Origin: Alphaproteobacteria bacterium UBA2964
GTDB taxonomy: Bacteria; Pseudomonadota; Alphaproteobacteria; MPNO01; UBA2964
Length of the DNA stretch: 60,688 nucleotides
Assembly: GCA_905182615.1 (NCBI GenBank)
Contig: CAJJCG010000031.1
Coordinates: 1-60,688, forward strand
Reading direction: 5' to 3'
Shown here: piece after piece, positions 38,111 through 44,798 of the stretch
How the letters are laid out: each line of letters opens with the position of its first letter
How positions within the stretch are numbered: position 1 is the stretch's first letter
Program-made: the position numbers and the translations under genes
The notes under the pieces: model-generated
Told to the model about the DNA's origin: nothing
Databases searched by the model: none
Seen by the model: the letters and a program-made list of their open reading frames with translations, nothing else

Positions 38111-39205
38111 ATGACTGAAATAGAGACAAAAGATCGCTTAACGCGCCGTACTCCGGCGGTTCCTATGGAACCTGTGGTAGATCCGGCGGCTTGGACAGCA
38201 TCGGACCTAGCATCAGATCAGGGGTGGGTACACGAACTCACTGAATCGGATGTCGCAGAACTCGATGCATTGGTTATCCTACTTTCGGAAAGGATTATCG
38301 ATGTTCTCGAACTCAAAGAGACCGATATTGATCTGCCGACCTTGGGGCCGCGGCTTGAAAGGGTAGCTAATGATGTTCTCGACGGCAGAGGACTTGCCCT
38401 AATCAGAGGTGTTCCAGTTGAGCGCTACTCGAGATTACAGTCTGCAATCGCGTTCTGGTGCATTGGTGGATTTGTCGGTGATCCGGTATCACAGAATGCC
38501 AAAGGCCATCTGTTGGGGCATGTTCAGGACCTCGGTGGTACGACGCTGAAAAACCCCAGTAATCGCGGTTATCAAACGCAAGAGGGACTGCCGTATCACT
38601 GCGATTCCTGTGATGTCGTTGTGCTGATGTGTTTGCATCCATCTAAGTCAGGTGGAGAGAGCACGGTCGTCAGCTCGTTGAACATTTATAACGAGATGCT
38701 CAAACGTAATCCTGCAGCGGCGGCTGCTCTAACCGAAGCAATATATCGCGACCGTCGGAACGAAATTCCAGAAGGCAAAGATCCGTGGTTCCAATTGCCG
38801 GTCTTTAATTTCCAAGATGATCTCATGACTGTTAGCTGGCAGGGCGGCTATATCCGTTCAGCTTCCCGGTTTGAAGAACTTCCGCCGCATTCTCAGGATT
38901 TGAAGGTCGGGCTGGATCTGTTCAATAAGTTGGCCAATGAGCTGGCCTATTCGATGGATTTTAAACCTGGTGACATTCAGATCTTGCATAATCATGTCAC
39001 GGTGCATTCACGCACGGCATTTGAAGAGTTTCCTGAATTGAAACGTAAGCGACATTTGCTACGACTTTGGCTGGGTACACCGAATGGGCGGCCATTATCG
39101 CCGGCTTATGCAAATCGTTATGGAGACCTGAAACCCGGCGCCAGACCGGCGGGAGGAATAATTGTACCGGGGACTGTATTTAAGGCCCCATTAGAGGCAG
39201 AATAG
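38111..39205 (+). CDS. TauD/TfdA-superfamily dioxygenase, larger clavaminate-synthase-like branch (paralogue 5)
   Basis: 364 aa. YHCDSCD (HxD) and NHVTVHSR distal His motif. Confidence 0.7.
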   Translation: MTEIETKDRLTRRTPAVPMEPVVDPAAWTASDLASDQGWVHELTESDVAELDALVILLSERIIDVLELKETDIDLPTLGPRLERVANDVLDGRGLALIRGVPVERYSRLQSAIAFWCIGGFVGDPVSQNAKGHLLGHVQDLGGTTLKNPSNRGYQTQEGLPYHCDSCDVVVLMCLHPSKSGGESTVVSSLNIYNEMLKRNPAAAAALTEAIYRDRRNEIPEGKDPWFQLPVFNFQDDLMTVSWQGGYIRSASRFEELPPHSQDLKVGLDLFNKLANELAYSMDFKPGDIQILHNHVTVHSRTAFEEFPELKRKRHLLRLWLGTPNGRPLSPAYANRYGDLKPGARPAGGIIVPGTVFKAPLEAE

Positions 39206-39315
39206 CCGCGAAGAAACAGGTGGATCGTTTCCAAACTATGGATCTGATCCAGATTATGCCTTCGGTCGTATGTCTAGTAAGGGAACGCAGGCAAATATCA
39301 CGTTAGGAGAAAACA

Positions 39316-40524
39316 ATGGAACTACCTACAAGTGATCGTTATCAGGCTATGAGTGTTGATAGCTTCGATACGACGAAGCTGTTGACCAACGCGGCTCGCC
39401 AACGGGATGCTCGTAAATTGAATGAATTCCCGATTTTTGACGCTGATGCGCATCATTATGAAAGCGAATCTATTTCAGAAATCATCAAATATATTGATGA
39501 TGACGTTTTGAATCACTTGGCGCGTGCTAATCCGGGAATTCTCTCTGCAGGTCGTGGTGGCTATCAGCCGGTGGGTGGCCGGATTACACGCTACCCGCTG
39601 CGCAAGATCGAAGAGACTCCATCCGATGGCACACATCGCGACGTTCATCTGTCGCGCCGCTGGATGGATGCGATGGGTATAGACTATATTAGTTTGTTTC
39701 CGACAGGGATGTTGGGTATCGGCCTTATCCCGCAGGTCGAGGTCGAAGTGCAATACGCTCGCGCGTACATGCGCTGGCTGACGGAAGAAATTCTACCGTG
39801 TGACCCTCGCGTTAAAGGTTATGTCTTCTTACCGTTCAACAGCCCGGAAGCGGCCTATGAAATTGCCACCGAGTTTGGTGACAAGGAAGGTATTATTGGT
39901 TTTCTCGTCACCAGCCCGCGTTATAAGCCAGTTCATGACAATGCTTATATGAAGACCTACAGCTATATCGAAGAAACAGGGAAGCCGTTGGTCTTTCATT
40001 CTGGTCTTAACTGGAATGACCCACTGATGTCAGTAACCAATCGATTTATCGCAGCTCATGCACTTGGTTTTACGCTTTATAACGTCATTCATATGTGCAA
40101 CTGGATCTGTAACGCTCTAAATGAGCGTTTCCCGAAAATCCCGGTTGTCTGGACAGAATCAGGCCTTGCTTGGGTTCCGTGGCTCGCTCAGCGGCTCGAC
40201 AATGATTACAAGATGCGTTCGTCGGAAATTCCGGGTCTGAAGAAACTTCCCAGCGAATATATGGGGGACATGTTCTACACCAGTCAGCCAATGGAAATGC
40301 CGAACGATTTGTCGTTCCTGGAAAGCACTTTCAAGATGATCAACGCGGAAACCCAGCTGCTTTATGCGTCTGACTATCCGCATTGGGATGCTGATATGCC
40401 TTCCACTATTTATGATCTGCCATTCCTTGATGAGAAGGCGAAGCGGAATATTCTTGGTGGCAACGCTATCAAAATCTTCGATCTCGATGTTTCGGATCGT
40501 TATCCAAACTATAAAGCTGCTTAA
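39316..40524 (+). CDS. amidohydrolase_2-family protein (ACMSD/LigW-like metal-dependent hydrolase/decarboxylase fold), copy 1
   Basis: 402 aa. FDADAHHYE N-terminal metal motif and ASDYPHWD C-terminal Asp motif. Confidence 0.7.
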   Translation: MELPTSDRYQAMSVDSFDTTKLLTNAARQRDARKLNEFPIFDADAHHYESESISEIIKYIDDDVLNHLARANPGILSAGRGGYQPVGGRITRYPLRKIEETPSDGTHRDVHLSRRWMDAMGIDYISLFPTGMLGIGLIPQVEVEVQYARAYMRWLTEEILPCDPRVKGYVFLPFNSPEAAYEIATEFGDKEGIIGFLVTSPRYKPVHDNAYMKTYSYIEETGKPLVFHSGLNWNDPLMSVTNRFIAAHALGFTLYNVIHMCNWICNALNERFPKIPVVWTESGLAWVPWLAQRLDNDYKMRSSEIPGLKKLPSEYMGDMFYTSQPMEMPNDLSFLESTFKMINAETQLLYASDYPHWDADMPSTIYDLPFLDEKAKRNILGGNAIKIFDLDVSDRYPNYKAA

Positions 40525-40618
40525 GCACCACGTGTTTTCTTCTCCGGCGAAAATCGGGCTGTAACCGCCCGACCTGAGATAAAAATTAGAGATATTTGTT
40601 GTTAAGAAAGGGAGTGTA

Positions 40619-40990
40619 ATGGCTAAGGAAATTCTCGTCGGAAAGGCCTCCGACTTCAAAGAAGGGGGCAAGAAAATTGTCCCTAACGGAAAGACCAGCG
40701 AAATAGGTGTCTATCTCGTGCATGGCAATTGGTATGCTTATGCCAATCTGTGCCCGCATCAGGGCGGCCCAGCCTGTGAAGGCCTGTTGATGGCCAAGGT
40801 TGAAGAGGTCATCGCTGAAGATAAGACCTATCAAGGAATGCGCTTTAATCACGACGAAATGCATATCGTTTGCCCATGGCACGGTTGGGAGTTTGATATT
40901 GCTGATGGTCAGGCTGTCGCCGACCGTAAGTGGAGCCTTCGTAAGTTTGAAGTAGAAGTTCGTGGAGAAGATGTCTATGTCCTCGCCTGA
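40619..40990 (+). CDS. stand-alone Rieske [2Fe-2S] domain protein
   Basis: 123 aa. The ligand boxes LCPHQGG (CxH) and VCPWHGWEF (CxxH) are separated by an unusually long 37-residue spacer. Confidence 0.8.
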   Translation: MAKEILVGKASDFKEGGKKIVPNGKTSEIGVYLVHGNWYAYANLCPHQGGPACEGLLMAKVEEVIAEDKTYQGMRFNHDEMHIVCPWHGWEFDIADGQAVADRKWSLRKFEVEVRGEDVYVLA

Positions 40991-41318
40991 TGTTGATCCA
41001 AGAGCAGCTGATCTGCCAGAAGGCGGAGAGGTTCTTGCCCATATTCCTGACGAAGAGGCCGCAATGCGAGCCTTCGCCAAGCGGATCGCGGAAGTTCCAG
41101 AGGGTGAACCCATCCCGATTGAAGTGGTTCAGGAAGGTTTTACGGCGATGGTGCGGCTTTATTCCGTTAAATTCCAGCTTGGTGAACGCTGGGAACCGTT
41201 TGCAGAAGACAGCATGGTACCTGCAACCGCTGCCATGATTATGTGCACGACAATGATGCGTGCCGTAAATGTCGAGGTGTTTGAATTGGGGATGTGGCAG
41301 TCATGGTCTGGTGCCTAA
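40971..41318 (+). CDS. hypothetical acidic protein, no family recognised
   Basis: ATG 40971 (MSMSSPDVDP...) overlaps the Rieske gene 3' end by 20 nt. The ORF ends 16 nt before the next amidohydrolase start. Called from operon position only. Confidence 0.4.
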   Translation: MSMSSPDVDPRAADLPEGGEVLAHIPDEEAAMRAFAKRIAEVPEGEPIPIEVVQEGFTAMVRLYSVKFQLGERWEPFAEDSMVPATAAMIMCTTMMRAVNVEVFELGMWQSWSGA

Positions 41319-41334
41319 GCATAAGAGGAGTGTA

Positions 41335-42561
41335 ATGGATTTACCGACGAGTGATATTCATAAGCAAGCCGTAAAATCTTTAGATACGACGAGTTTGCTT
41401 ACCAATGCTGCGCGACAGCGGGATGCCCGAAACTATGACTCGTTTCCTATAATTGATGTCGATTGTCATCATTATGAGAACGAGTCGCTTTCGGAGATCG
41501 TTAAGTATATCGATGATCCTGTACTAAAGCAGATGGGAATGCTTTATACGGGCGGTGGAACCGGCGGCCAATCACCGCTTAATCCCGGCGGTGTTGGCTA
41601 TCAGGATGTCTCTGGGCGCGTGACGCGCTATCCATTACGCAAAACTGAAACGACACCTAGTGACGATCAGCACCGTGATGTTCATCTGTCCTTACGCTGG
41701 ATGAATGCCATGGGCGTTGATTATGTCTGTTTGTTTCCGACGCCGATGTTGAGCCTCGGACTGCATCCGCAGCCTGAGGTCGAGTCAGGCTTGTCGAAAG
41801 CCTATAACCGTTGGCTTCTGGAAAATATAACCTCCAAAGAAGAACGTATCAAAACGATGATTTATGTGCCGTTCAGTGATCCTGAAGCGGCCTACGAAAC
41901 CGTAAAGGAATTTGGTGATCATCCTGATGTCATTGGCTTCATGATCGTGTCTGTGCGGTATCAAGCGGTGCACAACAACGCCTATATGAAGACCTATGCA
42001 CTGATGGAAGAGCTTGGCAAACCGCTCGGATTCCACAGTAACTATAATTGGAACGACCGGCTGGTCGGTAACGCTAACCGTTTTCTAGTGACTCATGCGC
42101 TTGGCTTTACCGTTTATAACGCGCTTCATCTGTGCAACTGGGTGGTTAATGGTATGCCGGAGCGTTTTCCGAAGCTGAAAACCATCTGGATTGAATCTGG
42201 GCTCGCTTGGATTCCGTGGGTAATGCAGAGACTGGATAATGATTACAAGATGCGTTGGTCGGAAGCCCCGTCTCTAAAAGGGCTGCCGAGCGATTATATG
42301 CGTGAGATGTTTTACACCAGTCAGCCGATGGAAATTCCGGACAATCCGGATGTCCTTAAAATGACCTTTGACATGATCAATGCTGATGATCAGCTTTTGT
42401 GGGCGTCAGATTATCCACATTGGGATATGGATGTTCCGAGTGTGATCTATGATCTGCCGTTTCTAGATGAACGGCAGAAGCGAAAGATGCTCGGTGGTAA
42501 TGCCATAGATCTGTTTAATCTCGATGTCAGTAAACGTTTTCCGAACTACAAACCAGCCTAA
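41335..42561 (+). CDS. amidohydrolase_2-family protein, copy 2
   Basis: The track ORF starts at 41269. ATG 41335, preceded by AAGAGGAG, gives MDLPTSDIHKQAVKSLDTTSLLTNAARQRDAR, colinear with the copy 1 N-terminus. IDVDCHHYE and ASDYPHWD motifs. Confidence 0.75.
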   Translation: MDLPTSDIHKQAVKSLDTTSLLTNAARQRDARNYDSFPIIDVDCHHYENESLSEIVKYIDDPVLKQMGMLYTGGGTGGQSPLNPGGVGYQDVSGRVTRYPLRKTETTPSDDQHRDVHLSLRWMNAMGVDYVCLFPTPMLSLGLHPQPEVESGLSKAYNRWLLENITSKEERIKTMIYVPFSDPEAAYETVKEFGDHPDVIGFMIVSVRYQAVHNNAYMKTYALMEELGKPLGFHSNYNWNDRLVGNANRFLVTHALGFTVYNALHLCNWVVNGMPERFPKLKTIWIESGLAWIPWVMQRLDNDYKMRWSEAPSLKGLPSDYMREMFYTSQPMEIPDNPDVLKMTFDMINADDQLLWASDYPHWDMDVPSVIYDLPFLDERQKRKMLGGNAIDLFNLDVSKRFPNYKPA

Positions 42562-42567
42562 CGGGAA

Positions 42568-43869
42568 GTGACGGTGACCTTAACTGAAGGGCTAGTTAAG
42601 TTAATTCGTAAAAAACCAGTTTCGGTTGTTGATCTTCATCAAACGGCTTTGTTCACGCTTGATGCGGTTGCCAATATGATTGCCGGTCGCAACTCAGAGC
42701 CGGGACGTAAGCTCCTCGAGTGGGGTAAAAACCGTCAAAGAGATTCTGCACGGCGCGCCTTTGTTATGGGTGGGCTGACGCATATTTTGGAAGTTGATGA
42801 TATTCATCGGGCATCAGTGGTTCACACCGGCTGTGTAACGGTCCCGGTTGCTTTAGCTCTGGCGGCTGATCAAGATATTCCCGGTGAGAAGTTTCTTAAA
42901 AGCGTTCTTTATGGATTTGAAGCAAGCTGTCGCGTCGGAATGGCAGTTGGTCCGGCACATTACAAAATTTGGCATAACACAGCGACCTGTGGGCCTTATG
43001 GCAGTGCTATGACAGCCGCGACAATTCTCGACCTTAACGATGAGCAGACGATGCACGCGCTCGGTAATGCGGGCACACAGTCAGCCGGTTTGTGGGAATT
43101 TCTCGCCACCGGTGCGATGAGCAAACATCTTCATGCTGGGCGTGCTGCAGAGGCAGGGCTAGTAGCTGCTGAGTTGGCCGCCCTGGATTTTACCGGGCCA
43201 CCGGCGATCCTCGAAGGACCCGCCGGGTTTTTCGCGGGTGCCTGTCCCGACCCAGACCCGGAGGCCGTTTTAAGAGATGCCGGTGCTGAATGGCAGGTGC
43301 ATTTGACCTCGATCAAGCCATGGCCCGCGTGCCGTCATACCCATCCGGCGATCGATGCGTCACTCGCGGTATTTGATGATCTCGATGGGGCTGCCATAGA
43401 GCGCATTGAGGTTGAGACTTATCAGGCCGCAATTGATGTGTGTGACCGGCCTGTAGCAAACAGCGAATATGAAGGCAAGTTTTCTCTGCAGCATTGTGTT
43501 GCTGCAGCGTTGCAACGCGGCAAGGTCGATTTTTCTGCCTTTGGACCAGAGGCACGACGTGATGCGGCGGAGCTCGCAACGAAGGTAAGTGTGTCAGCCG
43601 GCGGGCCTTATGCCAAATCCTACCCGGCTTCATGGGGGGCTGCGGTTTCTGTTATTCTCGCGGATGGTACAAAACTAGAATCCTCAAAGCCCGAATGTAA
43701 GGGCGATCCAGAATCGGCGTTGAATGACGATGAGATGATTGCCAAAGCCCGCGACCTGATCCGCTTTGGTGGCATCAATGACCCGGCGCCGGTCATTGAG
43801 GGTGTTATGGGAATGTCCCAAGGTGGTAATTCTCTGAATGTATCTAGCCTATTAGCGTCTGCAGCATAA
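42568..43869 (+). CDS. MmgE/PrpD-family protein (not the canonical PrpD)
   Basis: 433 aa with a GTG start. Family-like core (GGLTHILEVDDIH, TCGPYGSAMTAA). Confidence 0.7.
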   Translation: MTVTLTEGLVKLIRKKPVSVVDLHQTALFTLDAVANMIAGRNSEPGRKLLEWGKNRQRDSARRAFVMGGLTHILEVDDIHRASVVHTGCVTVPVALALAADQDIPGEKFLKSVLYGFEASCRVGMAVGPAHYKIWHNTATCGPYGSAMTAATILDLNDEQTMHALGNAGTQSAGLWEFLATGAMSKHLHAGRAAEAGLVAAELAALDFTGPPAILEGPAGFFAGACPDPDPEAVLRDAGAEWQVHLTSIKPWPACRHTHPAIDASLAVFDDLDGAAIERIEVETYQAAIDVCDRPVANSEYEGKFSLQHCVAAALQRGKVDFSAFGPEARRDAAELATKVSVSAGGPYAKSYPASWGAAVSVILADGTKLESSKPECKGDPESALNDDEMIAKARDLIRFGGINDPAPVIEGVMGMSQGGNSLNVSSLLASAA

Positions 43870-43973: not shown

Positions 43974-44798
43974 ATGAGTCAGCTAGAGAAAGCCGAGAAA
44001 CTTTTGGCGATGCATAAGAACGACGACATTTTGGTCCTGCCAAATGCTTGGGATGTCGCTAGCGCCTGCGTGTTGGTAGATGCCGGGTTTAAGGCAATTG
44101 CGACAACCAGCGGTGGATGTGCCTTCTCGGTTGGATTCTGTGATGGCGAACATATCGGCCGGGATGGCATGACGGAGATCGTTCGTCGTATGGCCTGTGG
44201 TGTTCCGGTGCCGGTAAGTGCTGATATGGAAGCTGGTTATGGTGGAAACCCCGATGATGTGATGGCTACCGTTAAGGCCGCGCTCGATGCAGGGGCGGTG
44301 GGCGTCAATATTGAAGACAGCAACAAAAGCGGTCCGAGGCGGCTTCATAATCTCGACCTTGCGGTTTCGCGTGTCCGTGCAGCGCGTAAAGCCGCTGACG
44401 ATTTTGGTATCCCGGCGGTGATTAATGCCCGAACAGATGGATATATGCTTGGCAGTGACGAAGACATGTTCGATGAAACTGTCAAACGCGCCAATGCCTA
44501 TCTCGCAGCAGGTGCTGATTGTGCGTTTGTGATCGGTGCGCGCGATGGTGACCTTATTGGTCGGCTCGCTGCGTCAATAGATGGTCCAATGAATGTCTTG
44601 GCAGGTCCCGGGACACCGCCGGTACCGCAATTAAAAGAGATGGGCGTGAAGCGGGTGACTGTTGGCGGCAATATAGCCAAGGCGGCCTATACGTTGGTCA
44701 AAACGGCTGCTGAAGAGTTAATGCAGAGCGGCACCTATGAGTTTGCCGCTGGAGCGTATTCGCAGCCTGAAATGCACCGTATTATCAAGGGCGAGTGA
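43974..44798 (+). CDS. isocitrate lyase/PEP mutase superfamily protein (methylisocitrate-lyase-like)
   Basis: 274 aa. VLPNAWDVASACVLVDAGFKAIATTSGG and GVNIED motifs. Confidence 0.7.
   Translation: MSQLEKAEKLLAMHKNDDILVLPNAWDVASACVLVDAGFKAIATTSGGCAFSVGFCDGEHIGRDGMTEIVRRMACGVPVPVSADMEAGYGGNPDDVMATVKAALDAGAVGVNIEDSNKSGPRRLHNLDLAVSRVRAARKAADDFGIPAVINARTDGYMLGSDEDMFDETVKRANAYLAAGADCAFVIGARDGDLIGRLAASIDGPMNVLAGPGTPPVPQLKEMGVKRVTVGGNIAKAAYTLVKTAAEELMQSGTYEFAAGAYSQPEMHRIIKGE

Follow-up and report, generated by a model that had tools for sequence, protein, structure and literature searches.

What do two paralogous members of the amidohydrolase_2 family (PF04909) do beside a Rieske protein and a small acidic protein? 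The question is raised by four genes in the 60-kb stretch of DNA analyzed here (the window, from a 73%-complete genome), all on the plus strand in the order AH1, Rieske, small acidic ORF, AH2 (Table 1). An earlier note on this DNA had called the combination unexplained, on the premise that amidohydrolase_2 enzymes are redox-neutral and work without an Fe-S partner, and had guessed at a multi-subunit enzyme. We consider it likely that these genes specify a multicomponent monooxygenase built around amidohydrolase-related dinuclear oxygenases (AROs), together with a helical partner on the ferredoxin side. The pairing of the PF04909 and Rieske proteins, which is of the AibH1H2/AibG type, is the known part of the locus, and the small helical protein is the new part.

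TABLE 1. Genes and intergenic features of the locus and its flanks, numbered from the first nucleotide of the window.
Feature	Position	Strand	Description
TauD/TfdA-family Fe(II)/2-oxoglutarate dioxygenase	38111..39205	+	PF02668 at 3e-35
AH1	39316..40524	+	putative ARO-type dinuclear oxygenase paralogue, 402 aa; PF04909
AH1-Rieske spacer	40525..40618	+	94 nt; hairpin CGGGC-N7-GCCCG and Rieske ribosome-binding site
Rieske	40619..40990	+	soluble [2Fe-2S] ferredoxin, 123 aa; PF00355
Small protein	40977..41318	+	113 aa, pI 4.3, four predicted helices
AH2	41335..42561	+	putative ARO-type dinuclear oxygenase paralogue, 408 aa; PF04909
MmgE/PrpD-family protein	42568..43869	+	directly 3' of AH2
PEP-mutase/isocitrate-lyase superfamily protein	43974..44798	+	PF13714 at 6e-78

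The premise of redox neutrality is out of date, since PF04909 contains Rieske-partnered AROs, and AibH1H2, for one, has the Rieske ferredoxin AibG and the reductase AibF as its partners (PMC7782822). AROs, among them PtmU3, AibH2, SfbO and DitZ, form a newly recognized superfamily of ∼17,000 sequences that hydroxylate unactivated C-H bonds with Fe2, Mn/Fe or Mn2 centers. Co-location with a small Rieske gene is a published criterion for them (3,307 ARO candidates; PMC10811679, PMC13154177), and with this published association the combination that the note found unexplained is accounted for. By definition an ARO is a PF04909 TIM barrel in which beta-strand 1 carries a D-x-H motif that ligates metal site 1 and a D-x-P-H-x-[D/E] motif follows at least ∼200 residues in; the ligand set is completed by a His that follows beta-strand 5 and a bridging Glu that follows beta-strand 6, and the class is further marked by a redox-active two-metal cofactor and O2-dependent oxidation of the substrate (PMC13154177).

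AH1 and AH2 are indeed paralogues, as had been claimed, being 61% identical over their full length, with PF04909 matches above the gathering score (1.8e-23 and 1e-21, respectively) and the common N-terminal pattern M[ED]LPTSD...LLTNAARQRDAR...D.D.HHYE. The start of AH2 is the ATG at 41335 (MDLPTSD), although its open frame extends back to 41269. Both proteins carry the D-x-H motif (D44-A45-H46 in AH1, D43-C44-H45 in AH2), which aligns with D-V-H of D3EI84 and SfbO and takes the form D-[ACS]-H throughout their clade, and both carry the D-x-P-H-x-D motif (D353-Y-P-H-W-D358 and D359-Y-P-H-W-D364). Of 92 clade members examined, 91 have the C-terminal motif in the form D-x-P-H-x-[D/E]. The predicted metal ligands are D44, H46, H228 (LVFHS), E281 (WTESG), D353 and H356 in AH1 and D43, H45, H234, E287, D359 and H362 in AH2, with D358 and D364 as second-sphere residues; in HMMER alignments the His and Glu ligands share columns with D3EI84 and SfbO. 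Alignments to ARO crystal structures were full-length, and the best PDB relatives of AH1 were 8SM7/D3EI84 (2e-35), 8SM6/SfbO (1e-28), 8SM9, 6M1W/8FUL (AibH) and 6OMP (PtmU3), with the ligand columns aligned. For AH1 and AH2 alike the best solved relatives are AROs, namely D3EI84, SfbO and AibH2. Judged by these motifs and alignments, AH1 and AH2 are almost certainly metal-dependent oxygenases of the ARO family that would be fed electrons by the Rieske protein, and their annotation as "amidohydrolases" can be changed to putative dinuclear oxygenases.

The Rieske protein matches PF00355 at 1.8e-12 and stands alone, and the unusual spacing of its ligand boxes was confirmed, with 37 residues between C45-P-H47 and C85-P-W-H88. 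The ligands C45, H47, C85 and H88 are invariant in 28 sequences, and C53 is an extra invariant cysteine. CarAc aligns to residues 8–59 and 83–121 only, while residues 60–82 are unmatched in solved Rieske ferredoxins. In the AlphaFold2 model (pLDDT 94) the insertion forms a long beta-hairpin with strands 56–65 and 71–84; these ∼21 residues without counterpart in solved ferredoxins explain why the spacer measures 37 residues instead of ∼16. The best Foldseek matches of the model were CarAc, NirD, T4moC and the naphthalene dioxygenase ferredoxin (TM-scores 0.7–0.8, targets of 103–113 aa), and its ligands, its fold size and the lack of a catalytic domain mark the protein as a soluble ferredoxin of the CarAc, T4moC and BphF type. 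Since the spacer is 37 or 38 residues long in 76 of 80 loci, it is a trait of the lineage and not a peculiarity of the window gene; a spacer of 32 residues occurs in one AibH1H2G-like cluster, from a related MAG.

The small ORF was correctly described as acidic; its length and its overlap with the Rieske gene, given earlier as 115 aa and 20 nt, had to be revised. Homologues start with MSSP, and the ATG at 40977 is preceded by a GGAG at a distance of 9 nt, so that the protein has 113 aa and its gene overlaps the Rieske gene by 14 nt, an arrangement that implies translational coupling. The gene, previously missed or unnamed, can now be called. It is under purifying selection (dN/dS 0.03–0.09), 101 close homologues were found, and the family comprises 871 clusters at 50% identity; selection and family size rule out a chance overlapping frame. 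As the note had supposed, the protein matches nothing in Pfam (E up to 10), NCBIfam or the PDB sequences. The AlphaFold2 model is all-helical, with four helices (pLDDT 77), and gave no Foldseek match against the PDB at E below 0.7. On this basis the small protein is an uncharacterized component that belongs to no recognized family and constitutes the novel part of the locus.

The C-terminus of the small protein, V-F-E-L-G-M-W-Q-S-W-S-G, is largely invariant, and residues 101–113 are its most conserved segment, yet among the ordered parts of the monomer they are modeled with the lowest confidence (pLDDT ∼60), a combination that speaks for a partner-binding tail. The invariant positions are occupied by Q, Y, G, P, A, T, M, F, E, L and W, and the alignment holds no conserved Cys or His, no clustered carboxylates and no metal-binding pattern. 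Long members of the family were considered as fusions to the Rieske protein or to an ARO, but their extra length consists of disordered Lys/Ala/Pro-rich N-terminal tails. One sequence, P0221 (186 aa), combines a Rieske domain cut short at its C-terminus with a small domain cut short at its N-terminus; we give it little weight because it is a single cluster and could reflect a deletion or an assembly error.

The four genes are co-transcribed as an operon. Seawater metatranscriptome contigs matching 39302–42013 and 39299–42824 cover AH1, Rieske, the small gene and AH2 without a break, and the second (run X3) runs from AH1 into the MmgE/PrpD gene; 67–89% of the sampled words were present in 19 RNA runs. 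Contig depth, a weak measure of expression, was 236 over AH1, 66 over Rieske and 37 over AH2 in run X5. A consensus scan found no terminator between AH1 and Rieske, and the hairpin in the spacer may be a partial attenuator. Over the TauD/TfdA gene the depth of the RNA contigs was far below that over AH1, and this gene appears to be transcribed apart from AH1. A 175-aa antisense ORF (40586–41113) opposite the Rieske and small genes was treated as spurious.

The guess of a multi-subunit enzyme gains from synteny. The four-gene order is kept in 22 marine genome loci. Of 80 loci, drawn from several families of Alphaproteobacteria and also from Gemmatimonas and a Burkholderiaceae MAG, about 77 show the order Rieske, small gene, ARO. 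The arrangement is therefore not due to chance, as it recurs in dozens of genomes; carriers of the clade are marine Rhodospirillaceae-like MAGs, Defluviicoccus, many Hyphomicrobiales, a Gemmatimonas MAG and the Burkholderiaceae MAG. The small gene was present in all 61 genomes of the order that were searched, usually in two copies, and in the loci examined each copy adjoins its own Rieske gene and an ARO, and the start-stop overlap with the Rieske gene recurs. Exceptions are L001 and, in genome G028, L024 and L025, where the Rieske-small pair lacks a directly adjoining ARO. Genomes of family f5 hold 6–10 AROs of the clade and only 2–3 Rieske-small pairs, and the window has two AROs for its one pair, so that the small protein appears to go with the ferredoxin and not with each hydroxylase. 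Judged by gene order, the link between the small protein and the Rieske gene persists across hundreds of genomes. The locus defines a coherent ARO clade, transcribed in the ocean, with an extra uncharacterized, apparently ferredoxin-coupled protein.

The closest precedent for the arrangement is the 2-aminoisobutyrate monooxygenase AibH1H2 of Rhodococcus wratislaviensis (PMC7782822, PMC10401708; PDB 6M1W, 8FUL), in which two PF04909 paralogues likewise stand beside a small Rieske ferredoxin with an electron-shuttle role and the dinuclear site has the same ligand set as the one predicted here. The similarity is distant (E ∼1e-21 to 1e-16), and AibH1 and AibH2 are only 28% identical, in contrast to 61% for AH1 and AH2. 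Moreover, AibH1 is a mono-zinc, non-catalytic subunit without the final Asp, whereas AH1 and AH2 both keep the full C-terminal motif D-Y-P-H-W-D, and neither is degenerate in this way; an AibH1-like degenerate partner (DYPHWQF) occurs in a different cluster, at loci L091 and L092. Gene order differs too, as Rieske and the small gene are here flanked by AH1 and AH2; a reductase, AibF, is part of the aib operon, whose published gene table contains no small helical protein. We found no ferredoxin reductase gene in the window or beside the paralogous cluster that a complete genome from the same genus carries, and no PF14759-type ferredoxin reductase anywhere in the window's 73%-complete genome.

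In the mechanism that we propose, AH1 and AH2 would be TIM-barrel hydroxylases, each binding a two-metal center (Fe2 or Mn/Fe) that activates O2 to hydroxylate a small metabolite, probably a carboxylated one, at a C-H bond. The Rieske protein would serve as the [2Fe-2S] electron shuttle, the counterpart of AibG or SfbR, loaded by a reductase presumably encoded elsewhere. AH1-type copies, upstream of Rieske, form one clade (100/100 support) found in the marine family only. In other lineages a single ARO follows the small gene, and AH2 is its orthologue. AH2 would be the ancestral partner and AH1 a lineage-specific duplicate with a complete metal site. Either both would be catalytic, with different substrates, or they may form an alpha2-alpha'2 heteromer like AibH1H2.

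Translated in step with the ferredoxin, the small protein would most likely bind it through the conserved aromatic C-terminus, possibly at the clade-specific beta-hairpin, and could serve as an adaptor or gate when the ferredoxin docks on the hydroxylases and passes electrons to them; for its binding partner, gene arrangement and copy number are what point to the ferredoxin. The strongest form of this idea, in which the protein is an obligatory and so far unrecognized component, stoichiometric with the hairpin Rieske protein, needed for docking or gated electron transfer to several AROs and representing a new kind of adaptor with a new fold, is one that we put forward tentatively. Substrates are known for very few AROs, and ferredoxin docking has only been modeled. 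If the small protein were needed for electron delivery, both the reconstitution and the annotation of the clade enzymes would change, and if it were obligatory, two-component reconstitutions from ARO and ferredoxin would be incomplete for this clade.

The small protein could instead act on the hydroxylase side, as an effector or coupling protein that binds the ARO and tunes O2 activation, in functional analogy to MmoB, DmpM or T4moD of the soluble diiron monooxygenases. In tmoC-tmoD of toluene-4-monooxygenase, too, a Rieske ferredoxin gene is followed by the gene of a small cofactor-less effector. The window locus mirrors this order, with a ∼100-aa protein lacking any conserved Cys, His or metal-binding pattern in the operon of a putative dinuclear-metal hydroxylase; the Rieske protein also has T4moC as one of its structural matches, and the ∼35-residue N-terminal extension of AH1 and the other clade AROs, absent from D3EI84, could be a docking site. 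The likeness to T4moD appears to lie in the arrangement only, since the all-helical model has no Foldseek match to any solved effector and the protein resembles the MmoB/DmpM/T4moD family (PF02406) neither in sequence nor in fold, and the T4mo hydroxylase is a ferritin-like four-helix-bundle diiron protein whereas AH1 and AH2 are TIM barrels. Copy number follows the Rieske gene and not the AROs, and it is to the Rieske gene that translation is coupled. One effector could still serve several closely related hydroxylases, but on balance we think a role of this kind unlikely.

More improbable still is a maturation or assembly factor, which would assist the Rieske cluster or the loading of a Mn/Fe site and take no part in the working enzyme. 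Small accessory proteins with assembly roles, such as DmpK and MmoD, are encoded in diiron monooxygenase operons, and within a genome every ARO-Rieske system has a small gene of its own. However, conserved Cys, His or clustered carboxylates are lacking, translational coupling implies near-stoichiometric synthesis and not catalytic amounts, and the disordered tails of the long members are atypical of metallochaperones. An ordinary redox-neutral role for AH1 and AH2, as PF04909 decarboxylases of the LigW or ACMSD kind or as hydratases like LigJ, with Rieske merely a neighbor, is hardly credible: the amidohydrolase annotation of PF04909 and weak matches to ACMSD, LigW and gamma-resorcylate decarboxylase (E 5e-6 to 5e-4) speak for it, but ARO structures match 25–30 orders of magnitude better, D-x-H plus D-x-P-H-x-D is reported absent from all characterized hydrolases and decarboxylases of the fold (PMC13154177), and the order Rieske, small gene, ARO is kept across families and phyla.

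Within the AROs, AH1 and AH2 have their best solved relatives in the group of SfbO/SfbR and the orphan low-potential AROs D3EI84, W7L2Y2 and B6JH23 (PMC10811679, PMC13154177; PDB 8SM6–8SM9), with which they share the ARO motifs, the Trp in D-x-P-H-W-D and a Rieske ferredoxin neighbor. Unlike that group, the clade has the additional, conserved N-terminal segment and a dedicated small protein gene between Rieske and ARO; no mention of such an intervening protein was found in those parts of the ARO literature that a search by term reached. The clade also differs at gamma1, the x of D-x-H, which is Ala in AH1, Cys in AH2 and Ala, Cys or Ser across the clade, compared with Val or Ile in the Rieske-associated low-potential AROs studied so far (PMC13154177). 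The low-potential, Mn-using subclass is characterized by a hydrophobic gamma1, a hydrophilic gamma2 and an aromatic gamma4 (Table 1 of PMC13154177). Gamma4, the x after H in D-x-P-H-x-D, is Trp in all clade members, and gamma2 (end of beta-strand 2) is probably Thr (LFPT-G), as mapped from one pairwise alignment only. As neither Ala nor Cys is clearly hydrophobic, the published metal-preference rule does not classify AH1 and AH2, and the clade is a useful test case for it. Gamma5, two positions past the motif Trp, is the residue for which stacking against the ferredoxin has been proposed; AH1 has Ala and AH2 has Met at this position, which is non-aromatic in the clade, unlike in the SfbO/D3EI84 group.

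The flanking genes bear on the substrate. The TauD/TfdA gene is a conserved upstream neighbor in the marine family (loci L026–L047), the MmgE/PrpD gene follows AH2 or its counterpart in both the marine and a Defluviicoccus-like family, and synteny makes the PEP-mutase/isocitrate-lyase gene a conserved part of the same neighborhood. Taken together, the neighbors in these two families (TauD, PrpD-like, isocitrate-lyase-like, FMN-dehydrogenase and ThDP-enzyme genes) suggest a small carboxylic acid as substrate and nothing more specific. In Hyphomicrobiales only the three-gene core is kept, and its neighbors vary, including a LysR regulator, an FAA hydrolase, an RraA-like aldolase and a molybdenum hydroxylase.

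Four open reading frames, all in the same direction, were read in the region (see table). AH1 and AH2, described in the earlier note as paralogues with a common distinctive N-terminus, are 61% identical from end to end and do have that N-terminus in common. The small gene between the Rieske gene and AH2 had been given as 115 aa with a 20-nt overlap; since its homologues and an upstream GGAG point to a later ATG, its product is 113 aa long and the overlap with the Rieske gene is 14 nt. The initiation regions of the Rieske gene (40608-40621) and AH2 (41324-41337) are near-identical, with GGAGTGTAATGG ahead of both start codons.

Genes of the amidohydrolase-Rieske region
Gene	Position	Product	Basis
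AH1	39316-40524	402 aa	PF04909 match
Rieske protein	40619-40990	123 aa	PF00355 match
Small protein	start ATG 40977	113 aa	homologues begin MSSP; GGAG 9 nt upstream
AH2	ATG 41335	408 aa	PF04909 match

A search of PDB sequences with AH1 returned 8SM7 (2e-35) and 8SM6 (1e-28) first, then 8SM9, 6M1W/8FUL, 8SM8 and 6OMP. All of these are amidohydrolase-related dinuclear oxygenases (AROs): D3EI84 (8SM7), SfbO (8SM6), W7L2Y2 (8SM9) and B6JH23 (8SM8) (PMC10811679, PMC13154177), AibH1/H2 (6M1W/8FUL; PMC7782822, PMC10401708) and PtmU3 (6OMP). ACMSD, LigW and gamma-resorcylate decarboxylase ranked below the AROs, with E-values of only 5e-6 to 5e-4. Two motifs on the PF04909 fold define the AROs, D-x-H near the N-terminus and D-x-P-H-x-[D/E] near the C-terminus, and reportedly no characterised hydrolase or decarboxylase with this fold has them (PMC13154177). 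The corresponding motifs and predicted ligands are D44-A-H46, H228, E281 and D353-Y-P-H356-W-D358 in AH1 and D43-C-H45, H234, E287 and D359-Y-P-H362-W-D364 in AH2; all of them fall in ligand columns of the crystal-structure alignments. AibG, a Rieske ferredoxin, and AibF, a reductase, are the partners of AibH1H2 (PMC7782822), and SfbO together with 3,307 further candidates was discovered by adjacency to a small Rieske protein (PMC10811679, PMC13154177). The pairing with a Rieske protein, previously regarded as unexplained, is therefore a known enzyme architecture, a puzzle solved by the literature of 2021-2026. What remains of interest is a third component, conserved, transcribed and uncharacterised, and a clade of AROs left unclassified by the metal-preference rule.

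This clade departs from characterised AROs in several respects. Whereas AibH1 is a degenerate, mono-zinc subunit without the last Asp (PMC7782822), AH1 and AH2 each retain a full predicted site. An N-terminal extension of ~35 residues, missing from D3EI84, is conserved in all clade members. The published metal-preference predictor requires the residue that separates D from H to be hydrophobic (PMC13154177); since the clade motif is D-[ACS]-H, its members are not classified by this rule. In the C-terminal motif Trp is invariant and is followed two residues on by A, M or F, and the position proposed to stack on the ferredoxin is non-aromatic in both AH1 and AH2. In a phylogeny of 91 clade members, all copies upstream of the Rieske gene formed a single clade (100/100 support) confined to the marine family, and the lone ARO that follows the small gene in other lineages was the orthologue of AH2; AH1 therefore arose by a duplication specific to its lineage. 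Extra tandem ARO copies occur at loci L037 and L040, and one genome carries a tandem array of four AROs of the clade (G028:C8:185133-190051); with 6-10 such AROs per genome in one family of the order, the expansion is marked and lineage-specific.

The ligand boxes of the Rieske protein, C45-P-H47 and C85-P-W-H88, are indeed 37 residues apart. HMMER alignments left query residues 60-82 unmatched in solved ferredoxins, with CarAc aligning to 8-59 and 83-121 only, so that the insertion suspected earlier is genuine and ~21 residues long. AlphaFold2 modelled it as a long beta-hairpin (strands 56-65 and 71-84; pLDDT 94), and the top structural matches of the model were CarAc, T4moC and the naphthalene dioxygenase ferredoxin (103-113 aa), plus NirD. 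The spacer measures 37 or 38 residues in 76 of 80 loci. At locus L092, an AibH1H2G-like cluster without the small gene has a 32-residue spacer; on the strength of this one case, long spacers may be a common property of ferredoxins associated with AROs. A third cysteine, C53 (H-Q-G-G-P-x-C), is invariant in the 28 aligned ferredoxins of the lineage (28/28); typical Rieske ferredoxins have a Leu near this position, and in the AibG-like example the Cys is displaced by one residue.

The small protein, for which the earlier note recognised no family, had no match in Pfam, NCBIfam or PDB sequences. It is nevertheless clearly a genuine gene, since it has 101 close homologues, belongs to a family of 871 clusters at 50% identity (E up to 1e-3) and shows a dN/dS of 0.03-0.09 where dS is not saturated. 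Its acidity does not extend to the family, because longer homologues bear additional disordered N-terminal tails rich in Lys, Ala and Pro; in P0123, P0125, P0170, P0174 and P0189 (~200 aa) long histone-H1-like disordered tails precede the helical core. The conserved core comprises the C-terminal 80 residues, of which the last, V-F-E-L-G-M-W-Q-S-W-S-G, are largely invariant. The alignment shows no conserved Cys or His. AlphaFold2 predicted four helices (pLDDT 77), and Foldseek found no match for the model in the PDB. Model confidence is low in the most conserved tail (pLDDT ~60), which would fit a segment that becomes ordered on a partner.

The small gene was present in 61/61 searched genomes of the order, mostly as two paralogous copies. 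In the eight regions examined, each copy lies behind a Rieske gene whose end its start overlaps, and an ARO adjoins most of the copies. Among 80 loci from species-representative genomes, the order Rieske-small-ARO was found in about 77, the remainder being truncated or frameshifted. The 80 loci span marine Rhodospirillaceae-like MAGs, Defluviicoccus, Xanthobacter, Bradyrhizobium, Enterovirga, Devosia, Rhodoplanes and Beijerinckiaceae, with one Gemmatimonas and one Burkholderiaceae MAG. Cultured bacteria that carry the Rieske-small-ARO trio include Xanthobacter tagetidis DSM 11602 / ATCC 700314, Enterovirga aerilata DB1703 and Bradyrhizobium sp. dw_411. The full four-gene order is kept in 22 marine loci, with TauD and two FMN dehydrogenases upstream and PrpD-like and PEP-mutase-like genes downstream. 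In a Defluviicoccus-like family AH1 is missing, and the locus consists of Rieske, small, AH2, PrpD, PEP-mutase and ThDP-enzyme genes. Genomes of family f5 of the order encode 6-10 clade AROs each, tandem arrays included, but only 2-3 Rieske-small pairs, from which the nearest ARO orthologue lies 2.5-22 kb away; the small protein thus tracks the ferredoxin one-to-one, not the hydroxylases.

In a few genomes the pair is not directly beside an ARO (L001:7640-9717, and L024 and L025 of genome G028). At L001 a PrpD-like gene directly follows the pair and transposase-like debris lies upstream; at L024 the pair has an EgtD-like methyltransferase gene on one side and thioesterase and GH3-family genes on the other. 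A second ARO cluster resembling aibH1-aibH2-aibG occurs in Hyphomicrobiales-type MAGs (L092:8717-11340, L091:8941-11557). One of its amidohydrolases has a degenerate motif (DYPHWQF in L091), with the final Asp missing as in AibH1; the next has DIH and DYPHWDF and is followed by a Rieske gene with a 32-residue spacer and no small protein.

Of the words sampled from the locus, 67-89% are present in each of 19 seawater metatranscriptome runs. Two assembled RNA contigs (39302-42013 and 39299-42824) together cover the stretch from AH1 to AH2 and part of the PrpD-like gene, and contig depth is far lower over the upstream TauD gene, which supports one AH1-Rieske-small-AH2(-PrpD) transcript, contig depth being crude and DNA carry-over possible. 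In run X5 (39211-42824) depth was 236 over AH1, 66 over the Rieske and small genes and 37 over AH2; by this crude measure, attenuation or a difference in mRNA stability may set in downstream of AH1.

We propose that a reductase encoded elsewhere would reduce the ferredoxin, which, complexed with or aided by the small protein, would supply AH1 and AH2 with electrons at their dinuclear sites; these sites would activate O2 and then hydroxylate a C-H bond. No reductase was found in the window or beside the paralogous cluster, and none of the PF14759 type in the source genome (73% complete). A ferredoxin-side role of the small protein is favoured mainly because of its one-to-one occurrence with the ferredoxin. 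It might instead act on the hydroxylase as an effector, by analogy with T4moD, which is also encoded after a Rieske ferredoxin (T4moC). A role as an assembly factor is a further alternative.

Conserved neighbours encode a PrpD-family dehydratase, an isocitrate-lyase-superfamily protein, FMN 2-hydroxy-acid dehydrogenases and ThDP enzymes, which suggests that the substrate may be a small carboxylic acid and that its hydroxylation is followed by cleavage. The window (1-60688) has the appearance of an island of genes for the catabolism of various small organic acids. It is rich in paralogues, with six TauD-family, three UbiD-family, eight ThDP-enzyme, three FMN-dehydrogenase, five SDR, two PrpD-family, two PEP-mutase/ICL-family and two ornithine-cyclodeaminase-like genes, and also encodes an orphan molybdenum-hydroxylase large subunit.
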